A DNA stretch of 63,223 nucleotides, counting the filler. It is 4 parts of 4 records of this genome, joined end to end, with 100 filler letters (N's around TTAATTAATTAA, not from the genome) between each part and the next. Parts side by side here need not be neighbours in the genome. Positions count along the whole stretch, not along the records: positions 51,756 to 63,223 come from SRR31147125_17334; 3 more parts are not named here. The stretch is one strand, 5' to 3'. Position numbers and translations under genes: made by a program. Below are positions 16,795 through 63,223 of the stretch, piece after piece (the first letter of the stretch is position 1; the number at the start of each line of letters is the position of its first letter). The notes below the pieces were generated by a model, which ran no database searches, had not been told where the DNA came from, and saw nothing but the letters and a program-made list of their open reading frames with translations.

Positions 16795-16798
16795 TAAA

Positions 16799-17722: not shown

Positions 17723-17759
17723 AATTTTCCTCCGTGTAAATGTTGTTTGAAATTCTTAC

Positions 17760-18602: not shown

Positions 18603-18606
18603 GGTC

Positions 18607-19530: not shown

Positions 19531-19548
19531 CGCACTAAAGTCTCCTTT

Positions 19549-20889: not shown

Positions 20890-20901
20890 TTCTTTTCTCC
20901 T

Positions 20902-22178
20902 TTAGTTGAATATTGTTGGTTTTTCTGCTGAGCCATTTGAGGTTGATAGTCCTTCAACTGATGGCCATCCATTATCATCCCAAATCAATTTATCAATTAA
21001 TAAACTTCTCCGATTTGAATTACCAACTTTATCTGGCTGTGATAAATCATATCCATGATAGACTAGCCAATAATCACCAGCATCATCTATGGCAATACTA
21101 TTGTGTCCAACGCCTGTAAACTGGCTACTAGGCATCACAACTTGATAGCCAACTTGGCTTTGTGTCATTGAATTTCCTGCATGATCCACATATGGACCTA
21201 GCGGACTAGTCGATCTTCCAACGACAACATTATATGTTGAGTTCACACCACTACAACATGATCCAGATGATAAAAACATATAATAATATCCATCTTTATA
21301 AATCACATATGCGCCTTCGTATGTATTAATATTAAACGGTAGACTTGTATCTTCACCAGCAAGTAATACTTTATCACTTGCAGCTTGTGCAATGTCACCT
21401 GCTAAACTTAATCCATCGCTGGCAAGTTCAATACCATAAATACCTCTAAAACTTCCCCAGACCATATATACTTTGCCATCCTGACCAGTAAATACAGCAG
21501 GATCAATAGAATTATTGACACCTATTTCACTTGATAAAAATAACTTGCCTTGATCTGTCCATGGTCCTGCTGGATGATCTGCCGTTGCAAAACCAATACC
21601 TGGATTTTCATCACCCCATAGAGATAATGAATAATATAAAATAAATGTATCATTAATTTTTACAATATCAGGGGCCCATAGACCAGCATTTAATGTTCCC
21701 CATGCCGGTCTATTCACACCTGTAAAAACGCTGCCTGTATATGTCCAATCTATCAAATTTGTTGATTGAATAATCGGACCATATTTTACACCAAACTCAT
21801 CATCCCATACACCATCATCTTGTGTACCATAAGCATAATATATGCCATCGTGACGAATAATGGAAGGATCAGCTAAAATAGGTTCCCAAACTGGATTATC
21901 ATATACTTGGCTTCCCCATACAGCTTTTAGAATAAATGCTTCATTAATCGGCGTGTCAAAATCAAAAGTTTCTCCATTATATTGCCACTCAACAAATACA
22001 TAACCATCTCTGATTGGAATTTCTGGAATGTCTAATATTTCATTTTCTTTGATGTTTTGTGATGCTACCGGTGAACCACCATTTGCATCAAATACCACTT
22101 TGTAAATTGTCTTTTGTCCACAAGCCATTAAAAGAAAGCTTGTGATGACGATTGTGACAACTAAATAAACTTTTTCAT
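20902..22178 (-). CDS. GH43 glycosidase lipoprotein with InlB B-repeat-like domain; 1-nt frameshift just after the start
   Basis: GGAGG RBS then ATG 22178; one extra A in the A5 run (22171-22175) gives MKKVYLVVTIVITSFLLMA-C; ADP, WAPD, SIDP, YEG motifs. Confidence 0.88.
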
Positions 22179-22192
22179 GAACTACCTCCGTT

Positions 22193-24661
22193 TTATGATG
22201 ATAAATCAGTGATGTCGCTGACAATAAAATAATCAATATCAACATTATGTGCATCAACACCTTCGCCTGCTGCACCTAACATAACAACTAATTTAGCGTT
22301 TGTTGTATCTATAGCATCAGTCACTTCAATCGTATATGTAATGACTGTCCAAGTATCAGCTTCTAATTGACTTTCTGTTCTTCCATCAGTTGCAATACCT
22401 GAGTATCCATTTGCTGCATCTTCAATCCATGCTCGAATTGTTCTTGCAACAGATGATTTAACACGTACATCTATTTGATATGTATGTCCTGCTTCTAATG
22501 TAATGCCTGAATTTTGATATAATTGATGATCCCAAGGATTACCACCAGGTGCTGCATCAAATGTCACTGTAACAACTCCATCAGTAATGCTTGCATCTAT
22601 GCGATCATATACCCATGAGCCTTGTTGATCAAAATTTTCTTCTTCAGCTTTAAATCTTGGACCAACAACTACAGTTCTTGTTTGCATATATACAGTACCA
22701 TTTGCATTTTCTGCAGCATATACAACTTCATAACTACCTGTTGTATAAATATCAAATCCATCATTATCATTAATGATTAAACTACTTGATATATCTTCTC
22801 CTAAACTATCTAATACAACAACATCTGTCAATAAATCAAATGTTGAATCACTATGTAAGACTGTCACACTTTCCATACCACTCCATACGAATGCATCATC
22901 GGCTGCTTCATTCACAGTCACAGTGATTGTTTTTTCTGCTTCATTGCCCGCTAAATCAATCGCTGAATAAGTAAGTGTGTATTCACCTGGTGTATTTAAG
23001 TCAACTAAGTTTTCTTTTACTGTAACATTTACTTCTTTTGAAATATCATCAGTTGCATATACATCTGCTAACCAATTAGGTTCTGCATCACCAGCTGTCA
23101 ACTCAAGATCTAGAGCACCTTCAATAGTTGGCACTTGATTATCTTCATAAAGATAGACTTGGAATGTATCAACTGTAACTGTTATATCATTTGCTGACGA
23201 TCCGTTTTTACCAAGTAACACCGCTACTTTTGCAGTTAAATCACTGTCTGCAGTAAATATGAGTTCAAACTCTTGATATTCAGTTGTAAGCAATGGATTG
23301 ATAGGATCTACAAGATTTCTAAATCCTGCACTCGGTTGATTGACTTCAATAGTCACTGTTCTTTCAGCTGAAGCTTTAATTCTAATAAATACACGATATG
23401 TTTGTCCAGCAGTTAATTCTGAAGATTCTTGTTGCAATTGAATATGCCATCCTGCTGTACTTTCGTTTGTTACTAAGATAGAAACAGTCCCATCACCATT
23501 ATCCGTGAAACTTGCTTCACCAGTCCCATCAGTTTGATTGACATCTGCAACCCAGCCTAACATACCACCATCGAAATCACCATTAACAGTGCTATGTGGT
23601 CCTTCTTTTGCAATATAATAATCAAATATTCTATTTTCTATCGATACATGACCATTTTCGTGTACGTATACATATTGAATGATTGCATTGGCACCAGCAT
23701 CTCTTACTTCTTTTGGAATTGCACCTAATATCATGAGATCATCAGTCACATCAGTTTCGCCTAATGTAGCTGAGACATCTTCAGTCAAATCAAGTGTATA
23801 AGACCCACTAGCTGCTGATACAACTTCATCAAGACCACTAAATGTAACACTTTGATCAATATTAACTTCTTCAATATAAATATCTTCTATGCTTACCATA
23901 TGAGGTTCTTCACTATTGACTACTAAGTCACCATCTTGTTGATAACCTAAATATATCACAACTTTAACATTACTATAATTTTTATCCGCTGTATAATACA
24001 ACTCATATGTCGAACCTTCTGCTGACAACGGCATACTTAGTGTACCCGGCATTAACATACTAAATCCATCATTTGGATCTTCAAAACCAACTGATAACGC
24101 ATGGCCTTGTGGACTTGATGCATTCACAGTCACTTTGTATGTCGTATTTTCTTTAAGAATAATATTACTTTGATATAACTGTAATGCCCACCATGCAGAG
24201 CCTGAATTTGAAATCGATACATTTGCTTTACCGTCTTCAAAACTTACATCAAAATCGCCACCTGGTTCATCGATTGTCCAGCCATAAGTATTATTCATCT
24301 CAAAATCATTGTTTGCAAGATTGTGCCCAATAGTGACTGAAAATGATTTTGTTTGTTCTTCAGTGACACCCGTTGAATTTTCAACTTGATATGTTACTGT
24401 ATAAACATCTGAAAAATGAGTGCTGAATCCACCGTCATCAGTGATTTCGATTTCACTTGTTAAATCACCATCAATGGAATCAGTAACCATCACACCTTCT
24501 AGTAAATCAACAACGTCCCCACGTACAATGGACTCATCTTCTAAACCTGACCAAGTTAACTCGCCATCATCAGATGGTTCAGGTTCTACAATTTCACTTC
24601 CGCAAGCTACTAATAGTGTAGCAAGTGCTAAAAACGCGAACATCATAAATATTTTTTTCAT
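22193..24661 (-). CDS. Surface lipoprotein with about three CBM4/9-like and about three DUF5011/Ig-like modules, no evident catalytic domain
   Basis: LVA-C lipobox; CBM-like WWALQLYQ, GWHIQLQQ, PWDHQLYQ; Ig-like DLLEGV..TDSIDGDLT and PGEYTLTYSAIDLAGN. Confidence 0.8.
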   Translation of the reverse strand: MKKIFMMFAFLALATLLVACGSEIVEPEPSDDGELTWSGLEDESIVRGDVVDLLEGVMVTDSIDGDLTSEIEITDDGGFSTHFSDVYTVTYQVENSTGVTEEQTKSFSVTIGHNLANNDFEMNNTYGWTIDEPGGDFDVSFEDGKANVSISNSGSAWWALQLYQSNIILKENTTYKVTVNASSPQGHALSVGFEDPNDGFSMLMPGTLSMPLSAEGSTYELYYTADKNYSNVKVVIYLGYQQDGDLVVNSEEPHMVSIEDIYIEEVNIDQSVTFSGLDEVVSAASGSYTLDLTEDVSATLGETDVTDDLMILGAIPKEVRDAGANAIIQYVYVHENGHVSIENRIFDYYIAKEGPHSTVNGDFDGGMLGWVADVNQTDGTGEASFTDNGDGTVSILVTNESTAGWHIQLQQESSELTAGQTYRVFIRIKASAERTVTIEVNQPSAGFRNLVDPINPLLTTEYQEFELIFTADSDLTAKVAVLLGKNGSSANDITVTVDTFQVYLYEDNQVPTIEGALDLELTAGDAEPNWLADVYATDDISKEVNVTVKENLVDLNTPGEYTLTYSAIDLAGNEAEKTITVTVNEAADDAFVWSGMESVTVLHSDSTFDLLTDVVVLDSLGEDISSSLIINDNDGFDIYTTGSYEVVYAAENANGTVYMQTRTVVVGPRFKAEEENFDQQGSWVYDRIDASITDGVVTVTFDAAPGGNPWDHQLYQNSGITLEAGHTYQIDVRVKSSVARTIRAWIEDAANGYSGIATDGRTESQLEADTWTVITYTIEVTDAIDTTNAKLVVMLGAAGEGVDAHNVDIDYFIVSDITDLSS

Positions 24662-48797: not shown

Positions 48798-50163
48798 ATG
48801 GCAGTTGAAAACATAGGAAAAACACCGCCTCATAGCATTGAAGCCGAGAGGGCGGTTATTGGTTGTATACTTTTAAACGAAAAGGCTGCATATGTTTGCT
48901 TAGAAGAATTACAATCATCAGATTTTTACAGACCTAACCATGCACTTATTTTTGAATGCATAGGTGAGCTTATTGTTGAATCAAGTCCTGTGGATTTGAT
49001 TTCTGTTACCGATAAATTAAACGTAAAAAACAAATATAATAACACAGAAGACATTAGATACTTGTCAGAGATGACACATATTATTCCAACAGTTGAGAAT
49101 TTGCAGTCATATATCGATATTATTAAACAAAAAAGTATTTTAAGGCAGCTAGCAGAGGCTTCTTATAATATTATACATGACGTTTATGATGGAGATGAGG
49201 TTGCGGTTGAAACAATACTCAATAAAGCAGGAGATATGGTTTATCAGATTGCAACGGATGAGAGCAATAATGGTCTTGAACATGTTTCTAAGCTTTTGGA
49301 GCAAAGCTATAAGGTTTTGGCAGACCAAGCCGAAAACAAAGGCGGACTCTTGGGTGTTTCTGCGGGTTTTACTAAAATGGACAATATGCTTTCGGGTTTA
49401 CAAAAGGACCAGCTAATCATTGTTGCTGGAAGGCCTGGTATGGGTAAAACCAGTTTTGGCTTAAATGTAGTACAACACGTAGCACTTTCAGAACAAAAGA
49501 CAGTTGCTGTTTTTTCTCTTGAAATGAGCAAAGAACAGCTTATTACAAGGATGATGTGCGCAGAAGCCAAAGTTGATTCTCAAAATGCGAGAACAGGAAA
49601 CTTAACACCTGATGATTTCATGAAGCTTGCTGATGCTGCTGAAAGATTAAATGATGCTAAGTTATATGTTGATGATACTCCGGGAATAAATATGGTTGAG
49701 ATTATGGCAAAACTTAGACGTATGAAGCTGGAGCATGGACTTGCTTTGGTTATGATAGATTATTTACAACTGATGCACTCTGCAAAGCGTATTGACAACA
49801 GACAACAAGAGGTATCGGAGATTACAAGAAGCGTTAAGCTTTTTGGCAAAAGAACTCAGTGTCCCTGTTATACTTTTGTCTCAGCTTTCTCGTGCGTCCG
49901 AAAAACGGAATAAAGATGAAAAAATGCCAATGCTTTCAGATTTGCGTGAATCTGGATCTATCGAGCAAGATGCCGATGTAGTATTGTTTATTCATAGAGA
50001 TTCATATTATGATGAAACCGCAAACGAAAGTACTGCGATAGTTAAAATTGCGAAACAGAGAAGTGGACCTACTGGCAATATAGATATGATTTGGAATGGA
50101 GAGTATACTAGGTTTGAAGAGGACACAGGTGCAGCTCCTATTTCTGAATATGATGGTGGCTAA
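48798..50163 (+). CDS. dnaB: Replicative DNA helicase (DnaB family), 1-nt frameshift at 49840-49844
   Basis: PPHSIEAE, AGRPGMGKT, FSLEMS, IDYLQLM; second frame LSQLSR, SDLRESGSIEQDAD, AKQRSGP. Confidence 0.95.
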
Positions 50164-51755: not shown

Positions 51756-51872
51756 CCTGAAAAGATCCTAAATCCCGAGGGTGAAATCTTTGGTGTAACG
51801 CCTGTTGAACTTGAGGTGTTGCCTGGGAAGATTGAGATATTTTATTGCCTGTCAGCCGGAGCCTCGGCGTAG
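51756..51872 (+). CDS. C-terminal fragment of a diacylglycerol/lipid kinase family protein
   Basis: PEKILNPEGEIFGVTPVELEVLPGKIEIF resembles the DGE..G.TP...V.P tail of YegS/DAGK proteins. Confidence 0.55.
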   Translation, partial: PEKILNPEGEIFGVTPVELEVLPGKIEIFYCLSAGASA

Positions 51873-51960
51873 GTTGATGAGACGGAATGACAAAATCTGA
51901 CTGGATAACAGGATGTCATAGATAATATTTAGACAGGATAACACGATAGATAAAGATACA

Positions 51961-52125
51961 ATATTGGACTGCTACGCAGTCCTTTTGTTTTTGAGATAAT
52001 TCTTACCAAATTGGACTACGACGTAGTCTGATAAAAAGCGATCAAGTCTACTATATTGGACTCTAAGGAGTCCAATATAGTAGATAATATCATTTGATAA
52101 ATCAACTCTGTAGGAGTTGAATATT
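51961..52125. repeat. Cluster of four related REP-like hairpins
   Basis: GGACTGCTACGCAGTCC, GACTACGACGTAGTC, CTACTATATTGGACTCTAAGGAGTCCAATATAGTAG, TCAACTCTGTAGGAGTTGA. Confidence 0.75.
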
Positions 52126-52132
52126 ATATTGT

Positions 52133-54556
52133 TCAATGAGACAGTTTGATAATAATATCGATCATATTCGAATCAATTTCGCCCACATCCAATCTATTTC
52201 CCTCTAGCTCTACCCCATTTACGATCATGGATTTTACACCTGAATTCAAATGATCGGGATTTTGGATTGTGATATTCAGTGTTTTTCCCCGGAACTTACG
52301 TTTAATGCTGAAGCCTTCCCATTTTGATGGGATCTTAGGATCAATGATAAGACCTTTGTAATCGGCACGTATTCCGAGTAAATAAGACATGCCAATATAA
52401 TGCATCCAAACAGCAGAACCTGTCAACCATGAGTGAGACGCCTGCCCCATCGTTTCATGATCTGGAGACGTGACGTATTCACTATAAACGTAAGGTTCTG
52501 TTTCGTAACGGTCTATTCCGGCTTCTTCAGATGAATTTAATGGCATCATTTTGGAATAAAGCCTATTGGCATCTTCAATATTATCGTTCATTAAGGCTGC
52601 CATGATATACCAGGATGATGCGTGATTAAATATAGCACCATTCTCTTTTTTACCCGGAACGCAACGTGAAATCAAACCAACTGTATCATCTATTTCTGTA
52701 TATGATGGCCAGCAGATCTGCATACCAAGGGGTGTTTCGAGGTATTTTTTGCAGGCTTCAAGCGATCTTTGCGATCTTTCCTCATCTGCAACACCTGAAA
52801 TAACCGACCAGGTCTGTGCGTTCAGGAATAATTTGCCTTGTTCATCTTTGGCTGAGCCCACTGGAATACCATTATCACGATATGCACGTAAGTACCAGTC
52901 ACCATCCCAAGCTATGCTATTGATCGTATGCTTTAATTTTTGATATTCTTGTCTGAGTTCTTGTGCTTGATCATATTCTTTAACGAATTCAAGTAAATCA
53001 GCGGTTTCTTTAAGTGTATATGCCAGAAAAAATGCACCCCAAACCGTTTCTCCTTTTCCATCTGAACCGATATGATCCAGAGTGTCGTTCCAGTCGCCGT
53101 TCATGATCTTGGGCAAACCGTGTTCACCTGTCTCGGATAAAGCATATTTTATTGCCATAACGCAGTGATCAAGAACTCTTGCTTCACTTTCATCGTAGAA
53201 AGTTACCACTTCATCAAGAATGCCGGTATCGCCTGTTTCTTTGATATAGGACGAAACACCCAAGGGAATCCATAACGGTGTATCGGAATGGTGGGTCCTT
53301 TCTCCTGTTTTGACCAATTTAAAGTAGTTGTGAAGCGTGGAACCGTTCTTAAATTGGTATTGCATGGCGTTTAAGAGACGATCCCTGACTCGCCGGGGAT
53401 CAGACAGCAAAACACCGAAGATATCCTGAAATTGATCTCTCATCCCGGTTCCGAACAATAAACCGCCGTGATAAAATCCGGCATTTCGTGCCATATCAAA
53501 AGTAACGTGCGTTTGATAATAATTCCATGTTCCCAGCATGGTGTTCAAAGCTTCATCGGGTGTTTTGATCTCAATGTTTGAATAAATATCATCCCATTTG
53601 GCTTTAAGTGCGGCAAATTCCTTTGCAGCATAGCAGCTTTTTCGAATATCTTTGATATTCTTTCCGCCAATAATATCAAATTCATTACCGCTTTCTTTAT
53701 CAGAAAGCATCATCATGGTTGAAAAGGACTTAGATTCATACGCTTTTAGGGTTAATTCGGATTGCAGAGCTGCACAAGGTTCTCCGGCAGTGATCTCGGT
53801 ATTGTCCATTTTGCTGTTCTCGATGGCTTGCGGATCCGCTTCTGAACGCCATTTACCAATAAAGTGGTCTAAGGACGCATCAAAACCTTTTACCGGAAGG
53901 GTTGTCGTAAATAATACATGGTACTGCCAGTCGATATTCGGTTGTTTTACGCTGACACCTTTGTTTAGAACCCAATATCTGCGTGTTGCAACCAGGCTCT
54001 GATTTTCTTTATTAAAGTGAATATCGGTAAAATGTTTGTCATTCGGTTGATTGATCAAATCGTTCAGAGCATTTCCCATGAGCAATTCGGTGTAAGAGTA
54101 GACTTCCAATTTTCTCTCTTTGCCAGTAAGGTCTTTGATTTCCACATGCCATATCTCACCGGCATCCTTCAGCGGAACGAAATAGGTCAAAACAGCTTGA
54201 ATGCCCTTATATTCTGTTGTGATCTTTGAATATCCGCTGCCATGACGACATTCATACTTGTCATATTCAATATTAAGGGTGGGCGCCCAGGAAAGTGACC
54301 AGAACTCACCGGATTCAATATCTTTCAAATAGATGTAACGTCCGGGACGATCCCAAGGCAAGGAATTATAGCGCATGCGTGTAATGCGATTATCACGCGC
54401 AGATTGGTAATAGGAGAAGCCACCACCGGTATGAGATAAAAGTCCGGCGTAATTCTCATTCCAGATATAATTAAACCAGGGACGAGGCGTTCTTGGGTCA
54501 GTGATCACATATTCGCGCGCTTTATTGTCTACATAAGCATATTTATTCTTTAGCAT
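52133..54556 (-). CDS. GH94 glycoside phosphorylase, substrate unknown
   Basis: TPRPWFNY, DRPGRYIYLKD, YECRHG, GMRDQFQD, GDWND (catalytic Asp), GKKENGAIFNH, SWLTGSA. Confidence 0.92.
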   Translation of the reverse strand: MLKNKYAYVDNKAREYVITDPRTPRPWFNYIWNENYAGLLSHTGGGFSYYQSARDNRITRMRYNSLPWDRPGRYIYLKDIESGEFWSLSWAPTLNIEYDKYECRHGSGYSKITTEYKGIQAVLTYFVPLKDAGEIWHVEIKDLTGKERKLEVYSYTELLMGNALNDLINQPNDKHFTDIHFNKENQSLVATRRYWVLNKGVSVKQPNIDWQYHVLFTTTLPVKGFDASLDHFIGKWRSEADPQAIENSKMDNTEITAGEPCAALQSELTLKAYESKSFSTMMMLSDKESGNEFDIIGGKNIKDIRKSCYAAKEFAALKAKWDDIYSNIEIKTPDEALNTMLGTWNYYQTHVTFDMARNAGFYHGGLLFGTGMRDQFQDIFGVLLSDPRRVRDRLLNAMQYQFKNGSTLHNYFKLVKTGERTHHSDTPLWIPLGVSSYIKETGDTGILDEVVTFYDESEARVLDHCVMAIKYALSETGEHGLPKIMNGDWNDTLDHIGSDGKGETVWGAFFLAYTLKETADLLEFVKEYDQAQELRQEYQKLKHTINSIAWDGDWYLRAYRDNGIPVGSAKDEQGKLFLNAQTWSVISGVADEERSQRSLEACKKYLETPLGMQICWPSYTEIDDTVGLISRCVPGKKENGAIFNHASSWYIMAALMNDNIEDANRLYSKMMPLNSSEEAGIDRYETEPYVYSEYVTSPDHETMGQASHSWLTGSAVWMHYIGMSYLLGIRADYKGLIIDPKIPSKWEGFSIKRKFRGKTLNITIQNPDHLNSGVKSMIVNGVELEGNRLDVGEIDSNMIDIIIKLSH

Positions 54557-54563
54557 TCTTTCC

Positions 54564-57314
54564 TCAAATACTCAATTTTAATGTTTTGATCTTTTTAGGT
54601 GTCATTTCGATCTTATTCAGGTTTATATCCCCTATAAGCAGCTCTTCCATAGAGGTTTCCACGGCTTCTTTGATCTTGAATACACTCTTCAATTCTGTGA
54701 TCTGCATCACAGATGTCGGATTATACAGGCGCAAGACGTACGCGTTCTTTTCGCGATCTTGCGATTCTTTAATGCAGGATATGACAATTTGATCATTGCT
54801 TAATTCAAAGAATGATCTTCCGGACTTGATCTCCCCGCTTGTATTACCATGTTCCACAATGCGAAGCGATGTATTGTAGTTTAAGGCTGTTTCATAGAGT
54901 TTATCGACTTCTTCCATATTAAAAGGATAGAATGCAAAGCGTGCTTTTTGTTTTCCCATGCATTGCGAACCCTTTTGTTCACTATAATCTTGCTTTGAAC
55001 TGGGTTGAATAATGTAGCGAAAAGCCCTGAAAAGCGTGATAGCCAGCGTACTTTTATCCGGCAATACTTCGTATTCCTTTAAACCGTCCAGAAGCAATGC
55101 ACAAGCTTTTGTATCATCGTTTATGCTCATGAAATGATAAACCGGTTGATCATATTGGGGCTGTTCGACCCAGTCTGACGTGTCAGGACGGTCTGTAGAT
55201 CTCTCCACCACATCAAATTGTCCTTGTGCTTTTGAAGTTTCAGAAATGACATCCGTATCAAAGATCATTCTTAAACGATGATCTTCTGATGGATTATCAA
55301 TAAGTGATTCATATTCAATATATTGTGACGTCTTTCTCAGCGTGATGATCGTCTCGATCTTCATGTTTTTTGAAGCGATTCCTTGTTTTCTTTCCTCAAG
55401 GTTTTTCGCAATGGGAAGTCGATGGATCAACTTGATCTGTTGCATTAAGTCATTGTTAACAAGGACGTGAACAAAAGACGGAAGATCTTTAGGGGTAAAT
55501 ACCGGTTCCACTTTTTCGTGCGTCCAGGCATGACCGGATTCACCTTCATCTTCATAATAGCCGGTATTCTCTATCTTACGTCCGGAAGCTTTATGCAGAA
55601 TATTCAAAGTGCCGTCCATGTTCACATTGACTGAAAGATGTTCGTTTTCCAGTTTTGCGCCCTGCACAATAGCTTTTTGTTTAATTTCGGGAGTTCCTTC
55701 GACCGGATTTACCTTAAATGTGTTCAGACTAAGTCCCGGAAGTTTCTCAACAGCCATCAAAACATGGTAGCGTTTCATTCTAAAGTACATGGGACGGTCG
55801 ATCAGCTGCTCAAGTACCGGTTCTTCATCTTTGATCGACAGAATTTCCATCGAAATGGTGTTCCCATCCTTATCAAAGATCTCAACATTGCCTTTATCCA
55901 GGTTTTGTGGTATATCAGTATGTGCTTCAATGATCTCTGAACGTTCATATTGGGTCGTATTGATCACAGTTAAATGAATATCTTCAGGATTTTTCCCCGG
56001 ACAATTTATATTCTTTATAAGATACTTTGTCGCTTTCGAAAAAACGCTTTCAGCGATCTCGTTGATCTGTTTGTATCGATTGACCATATCTTCATGAATG
56101 GCATCCAGGGAACAACCGCCAATGGAATCATGTGCGGCATTTTCGATGAGCATGCGCCAGGCGATCCTCAAACTTTGATCGGAGATATCAAGTCCAAACA
56201 TACCCGCTATGGTATACAGAGGTTCGGCATATCTTTCCAACCATCTCTCAGCATCCGCGTTCATTTGTTTCAAATACATGCGTGCCGAAGTGATATAACC
56301 GTATAAATTACCGCTACGGTGGTCGTATTGCGCCGATCTGCGTTCGCCCGTGACTTTGCTCAGTTTCGTGCGATCGACGTCCTGAGCAAGGAATTTGGCG
56401 TAGTCTTCTAAAGTTGAATGACGAACATCCACATCCGGCATTAAGCGCTTGATATCTTTGATAATTCTTGTTGTTTTTGCATTTGGGCCACTGCTATCAT
56501 GACCTTCCATCCAAATAACGTGAGGCGAAGTAAAATCATCCACTTGTTCGTCGATCAGTTTACTCGTCCATTCTTTGACATTCTCTTCGTAGTAAGTATC
56601 ATTGGCATCGGCTAAGGAATAATCTTCATTAAACTGTTTTTTATCGGCCAGATGAATAGGCGATCCTCCCCTTTTCCAGTCATATTCTACGTCATGTGGT
56701 GTTTCATTGAAAATAAGCGGCCGATACAGAAAGAAATAGAAGTTATAGCGTGGCATTGTTGAAAATCGCGATGCAAGGGCTTCTGTTCCATCAGCTCCGG
56801 TCCAAAGGAATTCAGCCTTTTTACTATCCAGTGAATTCATTCCTCTGTAGAACATGATCAGATCGATATCGAATCCTTTGTACAATTGCGGCAATTGTGA
56901 GATCTGACCCCAGGAAAAAGGCGAATAACCGATCTTAGATACTTTCCCGAATTCTTTACAGGTTTCGTGACCTAAAAGCAGATTGCGAATAAGATTTTCA
57001 CCCGAGATCATAAATTCGTCCGGAAGAATATACCAGGGACCGATGAATAGACGGTCTTCTTTGACGTATTTTTCAATTATCGTTTTCTTTTCAGGTCTGA
57101 TTTCAAGGTAATCACGCAGGACAATGGATTGAGAATCCAGGTGAAAGGCCCTGTAATCGGGATCATTCTCAAGAATTTCCAGAACAGAATCGATCATTTC
57201 GACCAGATGTTGGCGATTTTTCTGGAATGGGAAACGCCATTCGCGATCCCAGTGTGTGTTGGAAATAACGTGAAATACTTTATCTTTATATTCTTTGGGC
57301 ATATATTTTCTCAC
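54564..57314 (-). CDS. GH38 alpha-mannosidase-fold protein, atypical (nucleophile Asp replaced by Phe)
   Basis: SNTHWDREW, FHLDSQ, IGPWYILPDEF, ENLIRNLLLG, AHDSIGGC, DHRLR; GYSPFSWGQ in place of GYxPDxFG. Confidence 0.9.
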   Translation of the reverse strand: MRKYMPKEYKDKVFHVISNTHWDREWRFPFQKNRQHLVEMIDSVLEILENDPDYRAFHLDSQSIVLRDYLEIRPEKKTIIEKYVKEDRLFIGPWYILPDEFMISGENLIRNLLLGHETCKEFGKVSKIGYSPFSWGQISQLPQLYKGFDIDLIMFYRGMNSLDSKKAEFLWTGADGTEALASRFSTMPRYNFYFFLYRPLIFNETPHDVEYDWKRGGSPIHLADKKQFNEDYSLADANDTYYEENVKEWTSKLIDEQVDDFTSPHVIWMEGHDSSGPNAKTTRIIKDIKRLMPDVDVRHSTLEDYAKFLAQDVDRTKLSKVTGERRSAQYDHRSGNLYGYITSARMYLKQMNADAERWLERYAEPLYTIAGMFGLDISDQSLRIAWRMLIENAAHDSIGGCSLDAIHEDMVNRYKQINEIAESVFSKATKYLIKNINCPGKNPEDIHLTVINTTQYERSEIIEAHTDIPQNLDKGNVEIFDKDGNTISMEILSIKDEEPVLEQLIDRPMYFRMKRYHVLMAVEKLPGLSLNTFKVNPVEGTPEIKQKAIVQGAKLENEHLSVNVNMDGTLNILHKASGRKIENTGYYEDEGESGHAWTHEKVEPVFTPKDLPSFVHVLVNNDLMQQIKLIHRLPIAKNLEERKQGIASKNMKIETIITLRKTSQYIEYESLIDNPSEDHRLRMIFDTDVISETSKAQGQFDVVERSTDRPDTSDWVEQPQYDQPVYHFMSINDDTKACALLLDGLKEYEVLPDKSTLAITLFRAFRYIIQPSSKQDYSEQKGSQCMGKQKARFAFYPFNMEEVDKLYETALNYNTSLRIVEHGNTSGEIKSGRSFFELSNDQIVISCIKESQDREKNAYVLRLYNPTSVMQITELKSVFKIKEAVETSMEELLIGDINLNKIEMTPKKIKTLKLSI

Positions 57315-58609
57315 TTCTTCATGAATAGATGATGTTTTAACAGGACTTCCGGCAATCCGCCCTGCACGATATGTGATGCTGCAGACAGATCATGACCTGA
57401 TGTCTCTGCAAATGGTAAGGCGATGGCACAAGGAATTCCCGCTGCTCTAATGGCAATGGTTCCGCTTTCGCTGTCTTCAAATCCCATGACTTTATCCATA
57501 TCGTTAAGATCAATATGCAAAGTGTTCAAAGCAATGCTATACAAATCACGATGTGGTTTAAGTCTGATCTCGTGTGAATCATTGGCTGTTACAAAAGCGT
57601 CGTAAACGCGATGGTAATCGGAAAAAGCCCAATCCAATTCCCGTTTTTTAGTTGCTTTTAGCGGCCAGGCGCTGATCTCTTTCTTTATAGCTTCGAATAC
57701 CTGTTTGATCACAATATCCGCCTCATAAAAGATAGATGATGTAACCAAAGCCAATTTCACGGGATCTTGTTTAAAATATTCAGCTAAAGCATTAAGATCG
57801 GTATCATTATCAAATTCCAATCCGGTTTTTATCAAGTAATCTTCCATCAATATTGGTGTAAGGTACTTAAGGTCATCAGCCGACAACCAGCCTTTGATAA
57901 GTGAGATAAATATTGCAACACCGGGCATGGGTTCGATCAGGTTATCCATGCTCATGTCGTGGATCAATTCATTCATGGGAATTGTTTCATTCTTATCTAT
58001 TGCCATCAGAATTTCGTGGTATCGCTGGTAATATATGTCGATGGAAGCTCTGACGATCTTGCTTTTTGAATCTATCAGACAAGATTTTTTGTATTTTCGA
58101 AACAATTCTTTATTTGAAAGCTCAACATCGTTCTCAATGCCTTCACAATTCAATATTTTACAGGAAATCTTAACTTCTTTCACTCTTGAAGGATCTTTCC
58201 CAAAACGAAAAAACCAGGCTGCCGATTCAATAAATGCTTTTCTAATAGCTTTTTCATCAATATTAAATCGATAGGTATCAATAAGGTATTCGACATGTCT
58301 TGTTGTGCTGTTGCCGATGATATGCGGATAATCTTTTTCTTCATCCAATCCGGGCCAAGCAGAAAGATCCATGCGATCCGATATTTTACGTATCATAAAT
58401 TCTAAAGAATGAATGCAAAGATTTTCAGTTGTGGTTGTGGTACCGTCCATATCGCAAACAATGGTTTGAATATCTTTCAGTTCTTTCTTTTTCTTTGCTA
58501 AAGGAGCGTATTCATAACGTGGGAATACACCTTCGGGGTTTTTAATACAGGCAAATTCCCCTTTGGGCAGTTTATCAATGGTTGTTTTATGTGAAACGAT
58601 CTTCTTCAT
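57311..58609 (-). CDS. HAD family phosphatase/mutase with a large inserted cap
   Basis: DMDGT, LVTSS, LKPHRDLY, GFEDSESG; 432 aa. Confidence 0.85.
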   Translation of the reverse strand: MKKIVSHKTTIDKLPKGEFACIKNPEGVFPRYEYAPLAKKKKELKDIQTIVCDMDGTTTTTENLCIHSLEFMIRKISDRMDLSAWPGLDEEKDYPHIIGNSTTRHVEYLIDTYRFNIDEKAIRKAFIESAAWFFRFGKDPSRVKEVKISCKILNCEGIENDVELSNKELFRKYKKSCLIDSKSKIVRASIDIYYQRYHEILMAIDKNETIPMNELIHDMSMDNLIEPMPGVAIFISLIKGWLSADDLKYLTPILMEDYLIKTGLEFDNDTDLNALAEYFKQDPVKLALVTSSIFYEADIVIKQVFEAIKKEISAWPLKATKKRELDWAFSDYHRVYDAFVTANDSHEIRLKPHRDLYSIALNTLHIDLNDMDKVMGFEDSESGTIAIRAAGIPCAIALPFAETSGHDLSAASHIVQGGLPEVLLKHHLFMKK

Positions 58610-58610
58610 G

Positions 58611-60044
58611 TTACTCCGATATCAATGTAATGCCTTTTTCAAGAAAAAGTGCAACTTCTTCCTCGCTTTGCCCTTCAGCATAAATTCGCATCAGGGGTTC
58701 GGTTTCAGATGCTCTCAGCAATAACCATCTGCAGGAACCTTCCAGACGGAATTTCAGTCCGTTAACAATACCGCGTGAACTGTTAAAAGCTTCGATATCC
58801 AGGATTTTCAATCCTGCAAATGTCGTTAATTTCTTATCATAAAGCGTCGGAAGGATCGATATCCTGTCCGGTCGGTCGAATTTATGGTCTATGCGATCAT
58901 AATAAATCTTTCCAAATTGTTTTCTTTTTGCTTCAACAAATTTGGATAGCTTTTTATAACCTGATTTTGCCAACATTTCAAGAAAAAGCAATGCGGAAAA
59001 TATTCCATCTCTTTCCGGCATATGAAAACTGTAGCCGAAACCGCCGCTTTCCTCGCAACCGATGGCTGCCCATGTCTTTAACATCTGTTCACAAATGTAC
59101 TTGAATCCGACTTGAACTTCATATAAAGGATGTTCTTCGGAAGCAAGTTGACTTATTTTATCGGTAACCGAGGATGTTTTAACAATACATCCTTCTTCCT
59201 TCCTGACATTGATCACATAATCTGTCAAATATAGAATGGTTTCCTGTGCGCTTAGCCATTCACCGTTTTCCATCATCACGCCAAGTCTGTCCGCATCCCC
59301 ATCGGTAGCAAACCCGCAACAATATTCGTTGCTTGCTTTCAGTGCCGCAGCGAGCGGTTTTAAATTCTTTTCAATCGGCTCGGCATAACGTCCGGAAAAA
59401 TCTTGAGTTGCATCACCATAGATAGTTTTACATGGGATGTCATATTGGAAAAGATATTCATCAATAAAAGTCTGTCCTGCACCTCCCATTGAATCTATTA
59501 AAGGCATAATTTCGGCATAATAAATAGCATTAAAATCAATGTGACTGTGAATAATTCTATGATATTCATCCAACTCATCAATTATCATACCAATACATCC
59601 ATGAAAAAATGTATCAGTAAGTAATGATTCAACTTTTCTGGTCTCCTCGGTCATAAAGGGACCACCATAATTAGCTTTGAATTTAACACCATTATATTGA
59701 GGTGGATTATGTGAGGCCGTAATCATGACCCCGGCAGTATAATTAAACCAACGTGTTAGATAAGATATCATTGGAGTGGCGACGATACCATCTTGTACAA
59801 AAGAGTCAATTCTTAACCCCTTCAATACAAGATTAAAGGTATTGGCAAGTTCTTTAGATCCTTTTCGTCCATCATATCCAATAATACAACTTGCTTTTTC
59901 TTTTTTATTCTTTAAATAACGACCAAAAGCTGATGCAACCAAAGCAACACTTTGACTATTTACTTCTTTTTCAATTAATCCTCTCCAACCATCTGTACCA
60001 AAGATGATCTTTGGAGGGTTCTTTACTGTAATTATCGGATTCAT
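58611..60044 (-). CDS. Alpha-D-phosphohexomutase (PGM/PMM family)
   Basis: FGTDGWRG, TASHNP (phospho-Ser), DGDADR, VGFKY, EESGG, RASETEP. Confidence 0.95.
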   Translation of the reverse strand: MNPIITVKNPPKIIFGTDGWRGLIEKEVNSQSVALVASAFGRYLKNKKEKASCIIGYDGRKGSKELANTFNLVLKGLRIDSFVQDGIVATPMISYLTRWFNYTAGVMITASHNPPQYNGVKFKANYGGPFMTEETRKVESLLTDTFFHGCIGMIIDELDEYHRIIHSHIDFNAIYYAEIMPLIDSMGGAGQTFIDEYLFQYDIPCKTIYGDATQDFSGRYAEPIEKNLKPLAAALKASNEYCCGFATDGDADRLGVMMENGEWLSAQETILYLTDYVINVRKEEGCIVKTSSVTDKISQLASEEHPLYEVQVGFKYICEQMLKTWAAIGCEESGGFGYSFHMPERDGIFSALLFLEMLAKSGYKKLSKFVEAKRKQFGKIYYDRIDHKFDRPDRISILPTLYDKKLTTFAGLKILDIEAFNSSRGIVNGLKFRLEGSCRWLLLRASETEPLMRIYAEGQSEEEVALFLEKGITLISE

Positions 60045-61288
60045 ACTTCCCTGATCGTGATCTTTTTGTTTATCGCTTTAGCGGCAATTCTACCGGCTGC
60101 TTCACCTGTTGCAGCGCATGTGGGCATAATGCGCAGAGCTGCTTGTCCCTCTCTGGTAGATGAAATACATCTACCGGCCGCTTGTAGATTTGAGACACCT
60201 TTTACGAATAAAGCCCATTTAGGTATATCGTAATATTCGCCTTCCGGCAGTTCTTCCATGATATTCTCATCTTCTTTTTGACCGTGGATATCGATCCCGT
60301 AGCATGCTTTTGCGATCGCGAAATCAAACTTACGGCCTTCCCTGATATCAGAAGTCGACATTACATAATCACCGACAGCTCTACGGGTTTCACGGACTCC
60401 TACCCTGTCCGCAACTTGTGCCAATTCCGCCTGTTCAAATCCGGGAAGTTCTTTCAGTATTTTGACAATATCAGCGATCTGTGTTCGCCCTTCAAGATAA
60501 GCATCTTCAAGGTTTTTTGCTGAAGTTCCATCGTATCCCAGCAGATTTGTGCAATTGAATGAAGCTGTTCCCAGCTCAGGTAAAGTGCAGTAAAAAATGT
60601 ATTGAACAGAATTTGAAAGCCTTTTTTCTTTTCTAGCCATCAAAATATGAGAAAAATAACCCGCCACGGATGAAATATGTTTTGGATCGTAAGCTTTTGT
60701 TGACCATGGAAAGAAATCTTCAGGATTTTCCTGTACGTAAGCTATTGCTTTTTCAAGATCAATATTTTTCATTTTGAAAAAAAGCGTCATAGCTTGTTGA
60801 TCCTGGGATATTTCAAAAGGTGCATCCGCTAACCAGGTTAAAACCGCATCACCGCTTGTATCGATGAATTGTTCTGCTTTTACTTTGATCGTTGCATCAT
60901 CTGAGCTCAGGATCAATTCTTTTATACGTGTAACATCTCTTTCAACTTCTATCAAGGATGTATTGAGTAATAATTCTACGCTACTCTTTTGTAGCATCTC
61001 CATAGCAACTTCCCTGAAAACAGCGGCCGAAAAACCGTTATCCAGCATACCGCCCTTTTCCCTCATTTCATCTTGAAGTTCTTTGAAAACACCTTCAACA
61101 AGTGCCTTACCGTCAATTTCATGTTTCATGAATGGTGAAACAAGTCCACCCGTGGCCATTCCGCCAATATATGAAAAAGATTCGACCAAAAGGACCTTAG
61201 CACCAGTCCGGGCTGCAGAAACGGCAGCGCAGATACCGGCGATGCCGGCTCCAACGATAGCAATATCCGTTTTGATCGTTCTTGACAT
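60041..61288 (-). CDS. FAD-dependent oxidoreductase (FAD_oxidored-like family, function unknown)
   Basis: VGAGIAG, GGMATGGLV, IDTSGDA, GVRETRR, YDIP, AGRCIS, ALRIMPTC..TGEAAG. Confidence 0.88.
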   Translation of the reverse strand: MSRTIKTDIAIVGAGIAGICAAVSAARTGAKVLLVESFSYIGGMATGGLVSPFMKHEIDGKALVEGVFKELQDEMREKGGMLDNGFSAAVFREVAMEMLQKSSVELLLNTSLIEVERDVTRIKELILSSDDATIKVKAEQFIDTSGDAVLTWLADAPFEISQDQQAMTLFFKMKNIDLEKAIAYVQENPEDFFPWSTKAYDPKHISSVAGYFSHILMARKEKRLSNSVQYIFYCTLPELGTASFNCTNLLGYDGTSAKNLEDAYLEGRTQIADIVKILKELPGFEQAELAQVADRVGVRETRRAVGDYVMSTSDIREGRKFDFAIAKACYGIDIHGQKEDENIMEELPEGEYYDIPKWALFVKGVSNLQAAGRCISSTREGQAALRIMPTCAATGEAAGRIAAKAINKKITIREV

Positions 61289-61289
61289 C

Positions 61290-61979
61290 TTAATCTTTCA
61301 TCTTTTCTACATATTTCATGGTCATGATCCTCGGACGTGTGATCACAGTACCGACGACCACCGCATAAGCGCCTGCGTTAAGTGCCGCTTTGGCATCCTC
61401 CGGAGAGGATATACGTCCCTCAGCAATGATGGGAATATCCACTTTTTCAGATAATTCTTTTATCAATTTTAGATTCGGTTTTCCATCCTTATCAGCTTCG
61501 GTTTCGGCTGTATACCCGTTCAAAGTTGATGACAAGCAATCCGCACCTGCTTCAGCACAAGCAAGTGCATCTTTCAAGCAGGAAATATCGGCCATGATGG
61601 GTTTTTGATATGTTTCTTTCATCTTTGCAATGAATTCCGGACCGGTCAAGCCATCCCAGAATCGCAGTGTCCCATCAATGGCCACCATATCGCAGCCAAT
61701 TTTATAGAGTTTTTCAACATCTTCCGGTGAACGTGTGATCTTTACGTATCCATCATTAAATTCAGCTTTTGTGATCCCGATCACAGGAAGTGCAATATTC
61801 TGAATTATATGATCTGTTTTTCTTATCCCACAGGAACGAATCGCTGCTGCACCGCCCATTTCAGCCGCTCGTGCGAACAGGGTTACACCATCCGGTGTAT
61901 TGAATGGATCGTTATCTTCCGCTTGACAGGAGACGATCAAGCCCTTTTTAAGTTTGGCAAATAGTTCTTTTGCGGACAT
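61290..61979 (-). CDS. nanE: N-acetylmannosamine-6-phosphate 2-epimerase
   Basis: GLIVSCQA, GGAAAIR, PVIGITK (catalytic Lys), IMADIS, TLNGYT, IAEGRI, VVVGTVITRP. Confidence 0.93.
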   Translation of the reverse strand: MSAKELFAKLKKGLIVSCQAEDNDPFNTPDGVTLFARAAEMGGAAAIRSCGIRKTDHIIQNIALPVIGITKAEFNDGYVKITRSPEDVEKLYKIGCDMVAIDGTLRFWDGLTGPEFIAKMKETYQKPIMADISCLKDALACAEAGADCLSSTLNGYTAETEADKDGKPNLKLIKELSEKVDIPIIAEGRISSPEDAKAALNAGAYAVVVGTVITRPRIMTMKYVEKMKD

Positions 61980-63221
61980 CTATGTTCTCCAGAAGAGTTT
62001 TTTTCGTGTAAAAAAGCTAACGATCAATGCCAAAATCAGCGTTTGAGCGCAAGCTAAAGCAAGTCCCCACCAATTACTGGAAGCAGAGATCTCTTTCAAC
62101 CATGGGAAAATGTGGGTTAAATATAGAATGGGAATGACAAGGTTATACATCCCCACATATGCGATCATGGGGTTTTGGCCATTGCTGATCAAAAGACCGA
62201 ATAGTTGTTTCTTTTTCAGAATATCGATCCAGATGCTGAAGAATACCAGCATGTAATAGGCTAAACCGCTTGTCAGAAAATAATATGAAAGCGTTGAGTT
62301 ATCTTTCTTGATACCGCCGCCAAAGGGCTCAAAAATCAATCCGAGTATGATCCACAAAGAACCCCAAACAACAAGATTCTTAAGAAGTTTTTCATCCTGA
62401 TTCATAGGTTTACGAACCTGTAGCCATGCAACAAAACATAGAATGAGCATTACAATGGTCGTTGCATTTAAAACTCGGGTGTACAATCCTACCAGGGATA
62501 CGGCAACCATCGCCAATGCGTAGATAGATAATACAACTAACCTTGGTGTATCGGGTTCATTGGCATCCTCTCTTCTGGTTTCCATCCAGTTCTTGATAGC
62601 ATCTCCAGCCATGGTTCCGGGAAGAACAATGAGCAAGTACTTTAACCATGAGAAGTTATAAAGCCATGTCAAAGGTGAAAAATTCCAAATTTTATCGATC
62701 CAGGAATAATCCACACCATTGAATAAGTGTTGAACATAAGGAATATATTTTATCGATTCCTGTCCACCGATGGCCGTTGCAATATCAAGTTGCATATGCA
62801 CAAGCCGCATTCCGATAAAAACCGCCATTACGGCCAGCCTGGCCATAGGATTCTTTCGAGTAAGTAAATAGATGATCGATCCAAAGAACATCATATTTGC
62901 TAAAAGCATAATGATAATATCCATTCTTTGGAACTTGAATCCCGAATCATCAGGATATTTCATGAATATCAAAAAGCTCAAAGCACCTGCCCAACCCAGG
63001 ACTTTCAATAAAACTTTCAACCATCCAGGCCAATTCTTCGGTGCCCTCAGGTAGATCATAAATAAGATGGCAAAACCGGCTAGGCCAAGTGCCCATGCAC
63101 CGTAAGCTATTTCGGGGCCCCAGATATTGTCTGTAAGCCTGTAGGGACGTATGTGTTGGATAAAGATCGCAAAGAAGACCAACAGGACTGTCCTTTCAAG
63201 AATATGCCCTGAAAGCGCCCA
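61980..63221 (-). CDS. DUF5009 / HGSNAT(NagX)-like membrane acyltransferase, 5' end runs off the window
   Basis: Polytopic; DIIIMLLAN, LKYLLIVLPGTMAG, EPFGGGIKKD..TLSYYF.TSG, NGQNPMIAY; frame open to the window edge. Confidence 0.8.
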   Translation of the reverse strand, partial: WALSGHILERTVLLVFFAIFIQHIRPYRLTDNIWGPEIAYGAWALGLAGFAILFMIYLRAPKNWPGWLKVLLKVLGWAGALSFLIFMKYPDDSGFKFQRMDIIIMLLANMMFFGSIIYLLTRKNPMARLAVMAVFIGMRLVHMQLDIATAIGGQESIKYIPYVQHLFNGVDYSWIDKIWNFSPLTWLYNFSWLKYLLIVLPGTMAGDAIKNWMETRREDANEPDTPRLVVLSIYALAMVAVSLVGLYTRVLNATTIVMLILCFVAWLQVRKPMNQDEKLLKNLVVWGSLWIILGLIFEPFGGGIKKDNSTLSYYFLTSGLAYYMLVFFSIWIDILKKKQLFGLLISNGQNPMIAYVGMYNLVIPILYLTHIFPWLKEISASSNWWGLALACAQTLILALIVSFFTRKKLFWRT

Positions 63222-63223
63222 AA

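Follow-up and report, generated by a model that had tools for sequence, protein, structure and literature searches.

Glycoside hydrolase (GH) family GH38, which includes Golgi mannosidase II and lysosomal mannosidase, is a textbook retaining family in which a single aspartate serves both as the catalytic nucleophile and as a zinc ligand. The inverting α-glucoside phosphorylases of GH65 are paired with a HAD-family β-phosphoglucomutase (β-PGM), the substrate-assisted N-acetylhexosaminidases of GH18, GH20, GH84 and GH85 act on β-gluco- and β-galacto-configured substrates, and a GH94 cellobiose or chitobiose phosphorylase together with a phosphohexomutase forms the module of chitobiose operons; GH38 and GH94 are reportedly also paired in xanthan-degrading loci. 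Here we analyzed a DNA window of 63,223 nucleotides (four parts of four records of one genome joined with filler, positions 51756 to 63223 coming from SRR31147125_17334), which carries a GH38-like gene, P0001 (54564..57314, minus strand), whose product lacks the nucleophile Asp. The aligned sequences place this protein in a large, old and uncharacterised Asp-less branch that travels with a phosphosugar enzyme, and the enzyme therefore probably cleaves sugars by a mechanism not yet described. Our tentative reading of the sequences is that the enzyme may be a phosphorylase, in which phosphate takes the place of the Asp and a β-sugar 1-phosphate is passed by a neighbouring HAD enzyme to NanE, the N-acetylmannosamine (ManNAc)-6-phosphate 2-epimerase.

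Active site of the GH38-like protein

Residue roles were taken from S. pyogenes SpGH38, as given in PMC2815779, with PDB chain numbering offset by +22. In SpGH38, zinc is bound by H13, D15, D125 and H351, D125 is the nucleophile and D232 the acid/base; D125 is tuned by R149 and Y192, the latter through a hydrogen bond, and the metal of GH38 enzymes contacts O2 and O3 of the −1 sugar (PMC2815779).

The reading frame of the GH38-like gene is open throughout and translates to 916 aa from a GTG codon that shares the sequence GTGA with the stop codon of the HAD gene upstream. From the ATG at 57302, twelve bases inside the GTG and probably the true start, the product is 912 aa, the length of most homologues; residue numbers below follow the 916-aa form. 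All four GH38 Pfam domains (PF01074, PF09261, PF07748 and PF17677), corresponding to the N-terminal barrel, the middle helical domain and the C-terminal β domains, scored above their cut-offs, which places the protein in the GH38 family and fold. An AlphaFold2 model built from an 80-sequence alignment had a mean confidence score (pLDDT) of 94.8, and Foldseek matched it to the S. pyogenes and E. faecalis GH38 structures with TM-scores of 0.83-0.85 (0.85 to 2WYI). The catalytic HWD motif lies already at residue 21, and the protein thus has no signal peptide.

A phmmer search of PDB chains aligned the protein with the solved bacterial GH38s (E-values 1e-87 to 1e-96, identity 24-26%) and set its GYSPFSWG without gaps against GYFPDTFG of the Enterococcus (3LVT/5KBP) and S. 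pyogenes (2WYH) enzymes. Instead of the GYxPDxFG nucleophile motif, the protein has Phe133 (codon TTT, 56916..56918) at the position of SpGH38 D125, the nucleophile and fourth zinc ligand; TTT is in frame and two base changes away from GAT or GAC. The other metal ligands and the acid/base are all present. H21 and D23 in the H21-W22-D23 motif (57246..57254) correspond to SpGH38 H13 and D15, and H395-D396 (56127..56132) to H351, the third kept ligand, and D352, which binds sugar hydroxyls. In the loop E270-G-H272-D273 (56496..56507), D273 is the kept acid/base (SpGH38 D232), and E270 and H272 are specific to the clade of the window protein; MEGHD aligns with MNGVD or MNGCD of the solved enzymes, and in 57 Asp-type relatives the loop has N in 44, G in 56, a variable third position and D in 56. 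R157 (56844..56846) equals SpGH38 R149, the partner of the nucleophile carboxylate, and is retained despite the loss of that carboxylate; W135 equals SpGH38 F127. R189 (56748..56750) adjoins Y190, the equivalent of SpGH38 Y192, and is followed by an insertion of about 45 residues (residues ~194-240, 56595..56735) found in the Asp-less branch only, which begins directly after the residue contacting the nucleophile in SpGH38 and holds R198, H221 and D224. All these features lie on the minus strand.

These results confirmed the description of the site in the original prediction: the nucleophile Asp is gone in the correct register, the Phe codon is in frame, the zinc ligands and the EGHD loop stand as described, and the reading frame is otherwise intact and on the same strand as nanE (61290-61979), four genes upstream. 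The classical double-displacement mechanism is excluded for the Asp-less enzyme. We read the window gene as encoding a cytoplasmic, metal-dependent enzyme of a GH38 branch without an enzymic nucleophile.

Distribution of the Asp loss and accompanying residue changes

GYSPFSWG was identical in all 121 sequences of the window clade, comprising the query and its 120 best matches (50-87% identical) from a collection of 5.8 billion proteins, which indicates that the change to Phe is neither chance nor damage. A private inactivating change, which would leave the Asp in close homologues, had been named as a possible refutation; none of the 121 close sequences keeps it. Where a source was named, the close homologues came from Marinimicrobia, Ignavibacteria, KSB1, Acidobacteriota, Bacteroidota and Bacillota, and a species name was attached to a few clade members (the GH38 protein of Algivirga pacifica, the HAD of Sediminitomix flava).

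An exhaustive search found 8075 relatives among 50%-identity representatives, and we aligned 148 sequences, namely the 142 of the best 150 representatives that exceeded 800 aa plus six close relatives and kin of the query. The nucleophile column held Asp in 57 sequences and another residue in 91 (F 49, T 18, C 8, S 6, A 5, N 3, R 1, L 1). The Asp was absent from 85 of the 142 closest full-length cluster representatives, a ratio that reflects the choice of sequences nearest an Asp-less query and is not informative for GH38 overall. In a FastTree phylogeny, all 57 Asp forms made up one clade with every Asp-less form outside it (midpoint root, support not assessed). On these sequences, the loss of Asp is older than the window clade. 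The original prediction had explained the loss as an adaptation to ManNAc; this part did not hold, since the wider branch (91/148) is also Asp-less and its other clades have no nanE link. A second candidate variant, Asp to Gly (GYSAGYFG in loci L007, L009, L010 and L012), was rejected as a regular-expression artefact, the motif lying elsewhere in the protein; L007 retains GYIPDQFA. Ten Asp-less representatives that we looked up came from metagenome or uncultured-organism assemblies or had no organism given, with no characterised member among them, and the database names of Asp-less proteins were "hypothetical", "alpha-mannosidase" and "mannosylglycerate hydrolase".

The remaining catalytic residues were retained across the 91 Asp-less sequences (H21 in 88, D23 in 88, D273 in 88, H395 in 89 and D396 in 89), and position 157 was Arg or Lys in 84. 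Judged by the alignment, the Asp-less site is an intact GH38 site minus its nucleophile. That so deeply diverged a branch strictly keeps its metal site, acid/base and sugar-binding Asp argues against a dead protein. It is accordingly improbable that the protein is no glycosidase at all, acting as a sugar-binding pseudoenzyme, a metal N-deacetylase with a CE4-like His-Asp-His site or a phosphoesterase. The missing nucleophile and a pocket rich in Arg and His would suit such a role, and the H-D-H triad with the E270/H272/D273 loop resembles what is reported of deacetylase sites in the same seven-stranded barrel superfamily. Against this, the acid/base and the Asp binding sugar hydroxyls are strictly kept across about 90 diverged representatives, the gene is placed where sugar-uptake cassettes need a glycosidase, and deacetylation would oppose both NanE and the acetyltransferase role said to belong to DUF5009-type proteins such as that of the window operon.

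A column-by-column comparison of the Asp-type (n = 57) and Asp-less (n = 91) sequences revealed further differences. Position 189 is Gly in 37/57 Asp-type sequences and Arg (85) or Lys (5) in 90/91 Asp-less sequences, and position 190 (SpGH38 Y192) is Tyr in 55/57 versus 27/91. His at position 137 (46/57) is replaced by Gln (82/91), Tyr at position 27, after the stacking Trp (52/57), by Arg (61/91), and the Tyr of the SpGH38 NEY motif at position 597 (52/57) by Trp (70/91), and the His at position 274 (53/57) is lost. The insertion, absent from Asp-type sequences, carries R198 in 55/91, a His, Arg or Lys at position 221 in 85/91 and D224 in 64/91. Among 80 independent metagenome loci, Arg or Lys at position 189 occurred in 42/42 Asp-less and 0/39 Asp-type genes. 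Within the window clade (n = 121), R27, F133, W135, Q137, Y156, R157, R189, Y190, R198, H221, W268, H272, D273, H395, D396 and W597 are invariant, and E270 (120), D224 (119) and H595 (118) nearly so. The conserved candidates for a phosphate site, by their positions in the sequence, are R27, R157, R189, R198 and H221. The residues that assist the nucleophile, Y190, H137 and H274, have thus been given up or are less constrained in the Asp-less branch. These changes suggest a coherent remodelling on the nucleophile side of the Asp-less site: one negative charge was lost and several positive ones were gained, which argues for an anionic ligand at the former place of the carboxylate.

The comparison also bears on whether a displaced carboxylate could have restored ordinary retaining GH38 catalysis, with D224 of the insertion or E270 moved into the nucleophile position. 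Both residues are near-invariant in the clade (119/121 and 120/121), and the SpGH38 residue in contact with the nucleophile aligns immediately before the insertion. Among the 91 Asp-less sequences, however, no acidic residue was gained branch-wide: D224 occurs in 64/91 and E270 in 12/91, so neither serves the whole branch. E270 sits on the acid/base loop, presumably at the other face of the sugar, and a relocated carboxylate would leave the HAD link described below unexplained; we consider this explanation highly improbable. Position 270 is in fact variable (D 26, Q 21, N 13, E 12, H 11) and position 272 is His in 27/91, so that E270 and H272, to which the original prediction drew attention, are genuine, near-invariant features of the clade but not of the branch.

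The HAD partner, the operon and the NanE link

Directly upstream of the GH38-like gene, its stop overlapping the GTG start, lies a HAD-superfamily gene (P0122, 57311..58609, minus strand, 432 aa) with DxDGT, TSS, KPH and EDSxSG motifs and an enlarged cap. We ran a hidden Markov model of this HAD subfamily (alignment A2) on the metagenome GH38 loci, leaving out of the count a second Asp-less copy (L096, 3828-6713) and two weak partial GH38 matches (L098, 3-2963; L144, 426-3644). The HAD gene was present in 18/42 Asp-less loci (no more than 400 bp away in 14) and in 0/39 Asp-type loci (Fisher P = 9e-7). A HAD-IA (β-PGM superfamily) gene is thus specific to the Asp-less form, as expected of a phosphorylase system. 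In an even sample of 301 genomes from the phylum to which a close relative belongs, 29 carried an Asp-less GH38 (E-value 1e-150 or better), 30 the HAD and 25 both; of the five HAD-only genomes, four had a weaker, partial or frameshifted GH38 beside the HAD and the fifth was a contig fragment.

The pairing recurred in the window clade, a 37-38% clade, 29-35% clades, and F-, T- and S-type sequences. A long HAD form (430-460 aa, enlarged cap) accompanies the window clade and a short form (~330 aa) the other clades, the two sharing 25-32% identity over 80-138 aligned residues. Across 12 loci the short HAD had a mean identity of 63.7% (53-76%) and its GH38 partners 34.3% (27-65%), the HAD being the better conserved in 66/66 pairs, as expected if the HAD acts on a common product. 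Minimal cassettes without a kinase, consisting of a regulator, the HAD, the GH38 and a Na+/solute symporter, were found in L060, L084 and L086. The nearest folds of the HAD (AlphaFold2 and Foldseek, PDB search) were mixed, comprising sugar-phosphate phosphatases (CbbY, the MtlD phosphatase domain, YniC) and β-PGM, and a PDB sequence search, a protein atlas and the AlphaFold2 model with Foldseek did not separate mutase from phosphatase. One 920-aa protein, P0411, on a single contig, joined a phosphohexomutase and a long HAD in the gene order of the window; this may be a genuine fusion or may reflect loss of a stop codon or read-through between adjacent genes, and a single sequence is too thin to use.

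The HAD and GH38-like genes belong to a run of seven minus-strand genes whose ends overlap or abut. As far as the window reaches, the run begins with a DUF5009 membrane protein (61980..63182), followed by NanE (61290..61979; NF002231, 231 bits against a cut-off of 189), a FAD-dependent oxidoreductase (PF12831, 60041..61288), an α-D-phosphohexomutase of PGM/PMM/GlmM type (58611..60044), the HAD, the GH38-like gene and, directly downstream, a GH94 disaccharide phosphorylase (52133..54556). The GH94 protein is about equally close to cellobiose and chitobiose phosphorylases, and no informative solved relative was found for the PF12831 flavoprotein. The operon thus combines NanE with two genes each of the phosphorylase-like and mutase-like types, and none of its genes was found to encode a kinase. 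In 27 clade loci, many of them cut by contig ends and two forming a duplicate pair (L057/L081), the partners were the phosphohexomutase (19), the long HAD (18), GH94 (18), NanE (16), PF12831 (15), DUF5009 (10), a ~1700-aa protein of the type IX secretion system (T9SS) kind (9), and a secreted NAGPA-like phosphodiester glycosidase with a T9SS tail (7, of which 6 distinct); L006 also had an ATP-binding cassette (ABC) sugar importer.

Other genes were observed around these loci. The NAGPA-like glycosidase (PF09992 with Golvesin_C and a T9SS tail) lay directly upstream of the Asp-less GH38 in L057 (5468-7126), L059 (5627-7291) and L080 (5226-6992), was detected by tblastn in L056, L058 and L079, and often had the ~1700-aa T9SS protein downstream; these neighbours hint at a sugar-1-phosphate-linked glycan as the extracellular substrate. 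L073 (G130:C4:104000-121200) held the whole operon with the phosphohexomutase, GH38 and GH94 genes each in several pieces, as if frameshifted, which reflects either assembly error or decay. In L063 (7785-8735 and 11663-12298) and L064, a T-type Asp-less GH38 was flanked by a URO-D-like (MtaA-type) methyltransferase, a B12-binding protein and DUF4185, and these loci may demethylate and cleave methylated sugars. GHL10 (PF02638) genes recurred: in one lineage of Marinimicrobia such a gene separated the mutase from the flavoprotein (L048, 14291-15400), and in L091 (13661-15817) it was fused to Golvesin_C domains. About 10-13 kb from the operon, a ROK protein of 416-425 aa was encoded in three genomes (G059:C2:24632-25573, G034:C1:1632909-1633832 and G010:C13:11910-12851); it is longer than the 303-363-aa ROK genes elsewhere in those genomes, and from its length we suspect a NagC-type regulator rather than a kinase. 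Elsewhere in the window, a separate glycan locus (15556-24661, minus strand) encodes two GH43 proteins that contain Listeria-Bacteroides repeats, a CBM4_9/Ig-like surface protein of 822 aa and an ABC sugar transporter of one binding protein and two permeases. A DnaB helicase frame of 371 aa (48798-50163, plus strand) ends inside its C-terminal domain, with 172/255 profile positions matched, and is followed by an overlapping 123-aa frame in another phase; a frameshift, a split gene or the remnant of an intein could account for the break.

NanE was carried by 26 of the 301 genomes. Counting as clade genomes 24 with matches of at least 49% identity (fragments included) and one with its copy in pieces, 22 genomes had both clade and NanE, 3 the clade only, 4 NanE only and 272 neither (Fisher P = 2e-26, a value that overstates independence because the sampled genomes are related). 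NanE was found in 0/5 genomes of this sample holding only other Asp-less clades. The predicted tracking of the PFSWG clade with nanE was therefore observed. The link is to the whole module, and its basis could be the neighbouring GH94 and phosphohexomutase instead of the GH38-like enzyme, as these two could by themselves yield ManNAc-6-phosphate from a β-ManNAc disaccharide.

The original prediction proposed a substrate-assisted α-N-acetylmannosaminidase with the N-acetyl group as nucleophile. Worked out for this site as a retaining mechanism, the 2-acetamido oxygen would attack C1 to give a β-face oxazoline, with D273 as acid/base; E270 or D396 would polarise the amide and F133, W135 and W268 would cradle its methyl group. 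The genomic link to a 2-acetamido sugar (22/25 genomes versus 0/5, NanE in 16/27 clade loci), the lack of an enzymic nucleophile and the invariance or near-invariance of E270, H272, W268 and F133 in the clade all agree with it. The candidate polarising carboxylates, identified from sequence positions, are E270 (120/121 in the clade, 12/91 in the branch) and D396 (invariant in the clade). If the DUF5009 protein is an HGSNAT-like acetyltransferase, as such proteins are said to be, it would answer a need for N-acetylation, and the term N-acetylmannosaminidase did not occur in the literature searched. According to PMC3326621, ManNAc oxazoline opens chemically to α-glycosides, no glycosidase for α- or β-ManNAc was known in 2012, and a chromogenic substrate for an α-N-acetylmannosaminidase was made then with no enzyme to match. 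On the other side, the Asp loss predates the clade and is common to clades without a nanE link, the gained Arg and His residues and the Asp-less-specific HAD are left unexplained, free ManNAc would require a kinase that the operon does not hold, and the nanE link is explicable by GH94 and the phosphohexomutase acting on a β-ManNAc disaccharide. In addition, a GH38 metal at the C2/C3 substituents would tie up the acetamido oxygen (PMC2815779). Taken together, the Asp absence, its conservation in the clade and the tracking with nanE stand, the origin of the loss in ManNAc use does not, and we regard an oxazoline mechanism as unlikely.

Proposed phosphorolysis and comparison with known systems

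Phosphorolysis is the model that covers most of the observations. The substrate would be an α-manno-configured glycoside, in the window clade probably an α-ManNAc-type residue on an imported N-acetylhexosamine oligosaccharide. D273 would protonate the leaving group, and phosphate, held by R157, R189 and nearby basic residues and perhaps by a free coordination site of the metal, would attack the β face of C1, releasing a β-sugar 1-phosphate. The adjoining HAD enzyme would turn this into the 6-phosphate, NanE would convert ManNAc-6-phosphate into N-acetylglucosamine-6-phosphate, and GH94 with the α-phosphohexomutase would process the remaining β-linked disaccharide, likewise without a kinase. 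Three points of this scheme are inferred: free phosphate as the anion, a mutase function for the HAD and the sugar that is cleaved. The substrate of the original prediction would be kept under phosphorolysis with ManNAc, and the mechanism changed. A change of sugar to ManNAc in this clade would agree with its specific residues, its modified HAD and its association with NanE. The fullest version, in which Asp-less GH38s are natural α-manno-glycoside phosphorylases with a dedicated HAD β-phosphomutase and the window pair has been re-tooled (E270, H272, H595 and the enlarged HAD cap) to take α-ManNAc through β-ManNAc 1-phosphate and ManNAc-6-phosphate to NanE, is conceivable but doubtful.

Several points weigh against phosphorolysis. 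We know of no natural phosphorylase in GH38, and of none that arose by loss of a retaining nucleophile; our literature search, which left most subscription journals outside, returned nothing relevant on an α-mannoside phosphorylase or β-mannose 1-phosphate. The placing of R27, R189, R198 and H221 near C1 derives from their sequence neighbours among known active-site residues, and Phe, bulky and non-polar, is odd beside a phosphate site. The HAD may be a phosphatase, given its mixed fold neighbours, and the bound anion could be a phosphate of the substrate, as NAGPA-like glycosidases adjoin the clade in six distinct loci. ROK-family genes, a family that includes sugar kinases, were present in 5/5 genomes tested, a presence that does not separate the hydrolytic from the phosphorolytic route, and sugar kinases occur in some loci of other Asp-less clades (L061, L062).

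An alternative is a nucleophile-free hydrolase, in which the basic residues would bind a substrate phosphate later removed by the HAD. Hydrolysis would proceed either by inversion, with a metal-bound water at the site freed by the Asp, or through a metal-activated 2-OH giving a 1,2-anhydro sugar. GH47 and GH92 are Ca-dependent inverting mannosidases, and a 1,2-anhydro sugar route has been proposed for GH99. The kept metal site and acid/base, the gained basic residues, the phosphatases among the HAD fold neighbours and the secreted NAGPA-like phosphodiester glycosidases adjoining the gene in L056-L059, L079 and L080 are all compatible with this route, as is a best NCBIfam model that is a 6-phospho-mannosylglycerate hydrolase, matched far under its cut-off. 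Yet the Na+/solute symporter of the minimal cassettes points to uncharged substrates, a phosphatase in a kinase-free catabolic cassette leaves the sugar unphosphorylated, the conservation of the HAD would be odd if it tracked diverse phosphorylated substrates, and the parallels with GH99, GH47 and GH92 are general analogies. We therefore rate such a hydrolase as rather unlikely, and retain phosphorolysis as our working model.

A large natural branch of environmental sequences thus lacks the catalytic residue by which this textbook family is defined. Our literature search found no paper on an Asp-less GH38, its HAD partner, an α-mannoside phosphorylase or an α-N-acetylmannosaminidase, with most subscription journals and supplements outside its reach. 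If phosphate is used, these enzymes would represent a new origin of glycoside phosphorylases, a natural "chemical rescue" of a lost nucleophile, together with a new metabolite (a β-manno 1-phosphate) and a new HAD mutase, and they could be used to synthesise α-mannosides. If the substrate is an α-ManNAc glycoside, the phosphorylase would be the first known enzyme of any type to cleave such glycosides, and the oxazoline mechanism would make the protein the first α-N-acetylmannosaminidase. On either reading, it is unsafe to annotate Asp-less genes as α-mannosidases, and the findings bear on the use of amino-sugar glycans by Marinimicrobia, Ignavibacteria and KSB1 bacteria.

Compared with the solved bacterial enzymes (SpGH38, 2WYH/2WYI; E. 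faecalis, 3LVT/5KBP), the GH38-like protein shares the four-domain architecture and fold, the HWD and HD metal ligands, the acid/base Asp and the Arg on the nucleophile side. It differs in the replacement of Asp by Phe, of G189 by Arg, of H137 by Gln and of Y597 by Trp, and its branch differs in having the nucleophile-bonding Tyr unconstrained and in the ~45-residue insertion (R198, H221, D224). The best NCBIfam model (NF007331, E-value 6e-140) is E. coli MngB, the 2-O-(6-phospho-α-mannosyl)-D-glycerate hydrolase, a cytoplasmic enzyme of GH38 whose substrate is a small anionic mannoside; the protein reached 467.7 bits against the 1138-bit equivalog cut-off and, unlike MngB, has neither a phosphotransferase-system context nor a nucleophile.

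The window GH94 (52133-54556) and phosphohexomutase (58611-60044) fit a chitobiose-type module, to which the window, unlike that module, adds NanE, the HAD, PF12831, DUF5009 and a nucleophile-less GH38. Like GH18, GH20, GH84 and GH85, the Asp-less GH38 has no enzymic nucleophile, could have a 1,2-trans 2-acetamido substrate and is linked to an amino-sugar gene, NanE; unlike them, it has another fold and a metal at the C2/C3 side, and its Asp-less state extends beyond the amino-sugar-linked clade. The GH65 phosphorylases are unrelated in fold, both activities are predicted for the present pair, and the HAD here forms a distinct subfamily (330-450 aa, N-terminal extension, large cap) weakly similar to β-PGM. 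By analogy, the GH65 and β-PGM pair would nevertheless follow the same gene logic as the locus described here, with an α-glycoside-cleaving enzyme that has no carboxylate on the attacking side, a small HAD-IA neighbour far better conserved than that enzyme, a transporter and no kinase.

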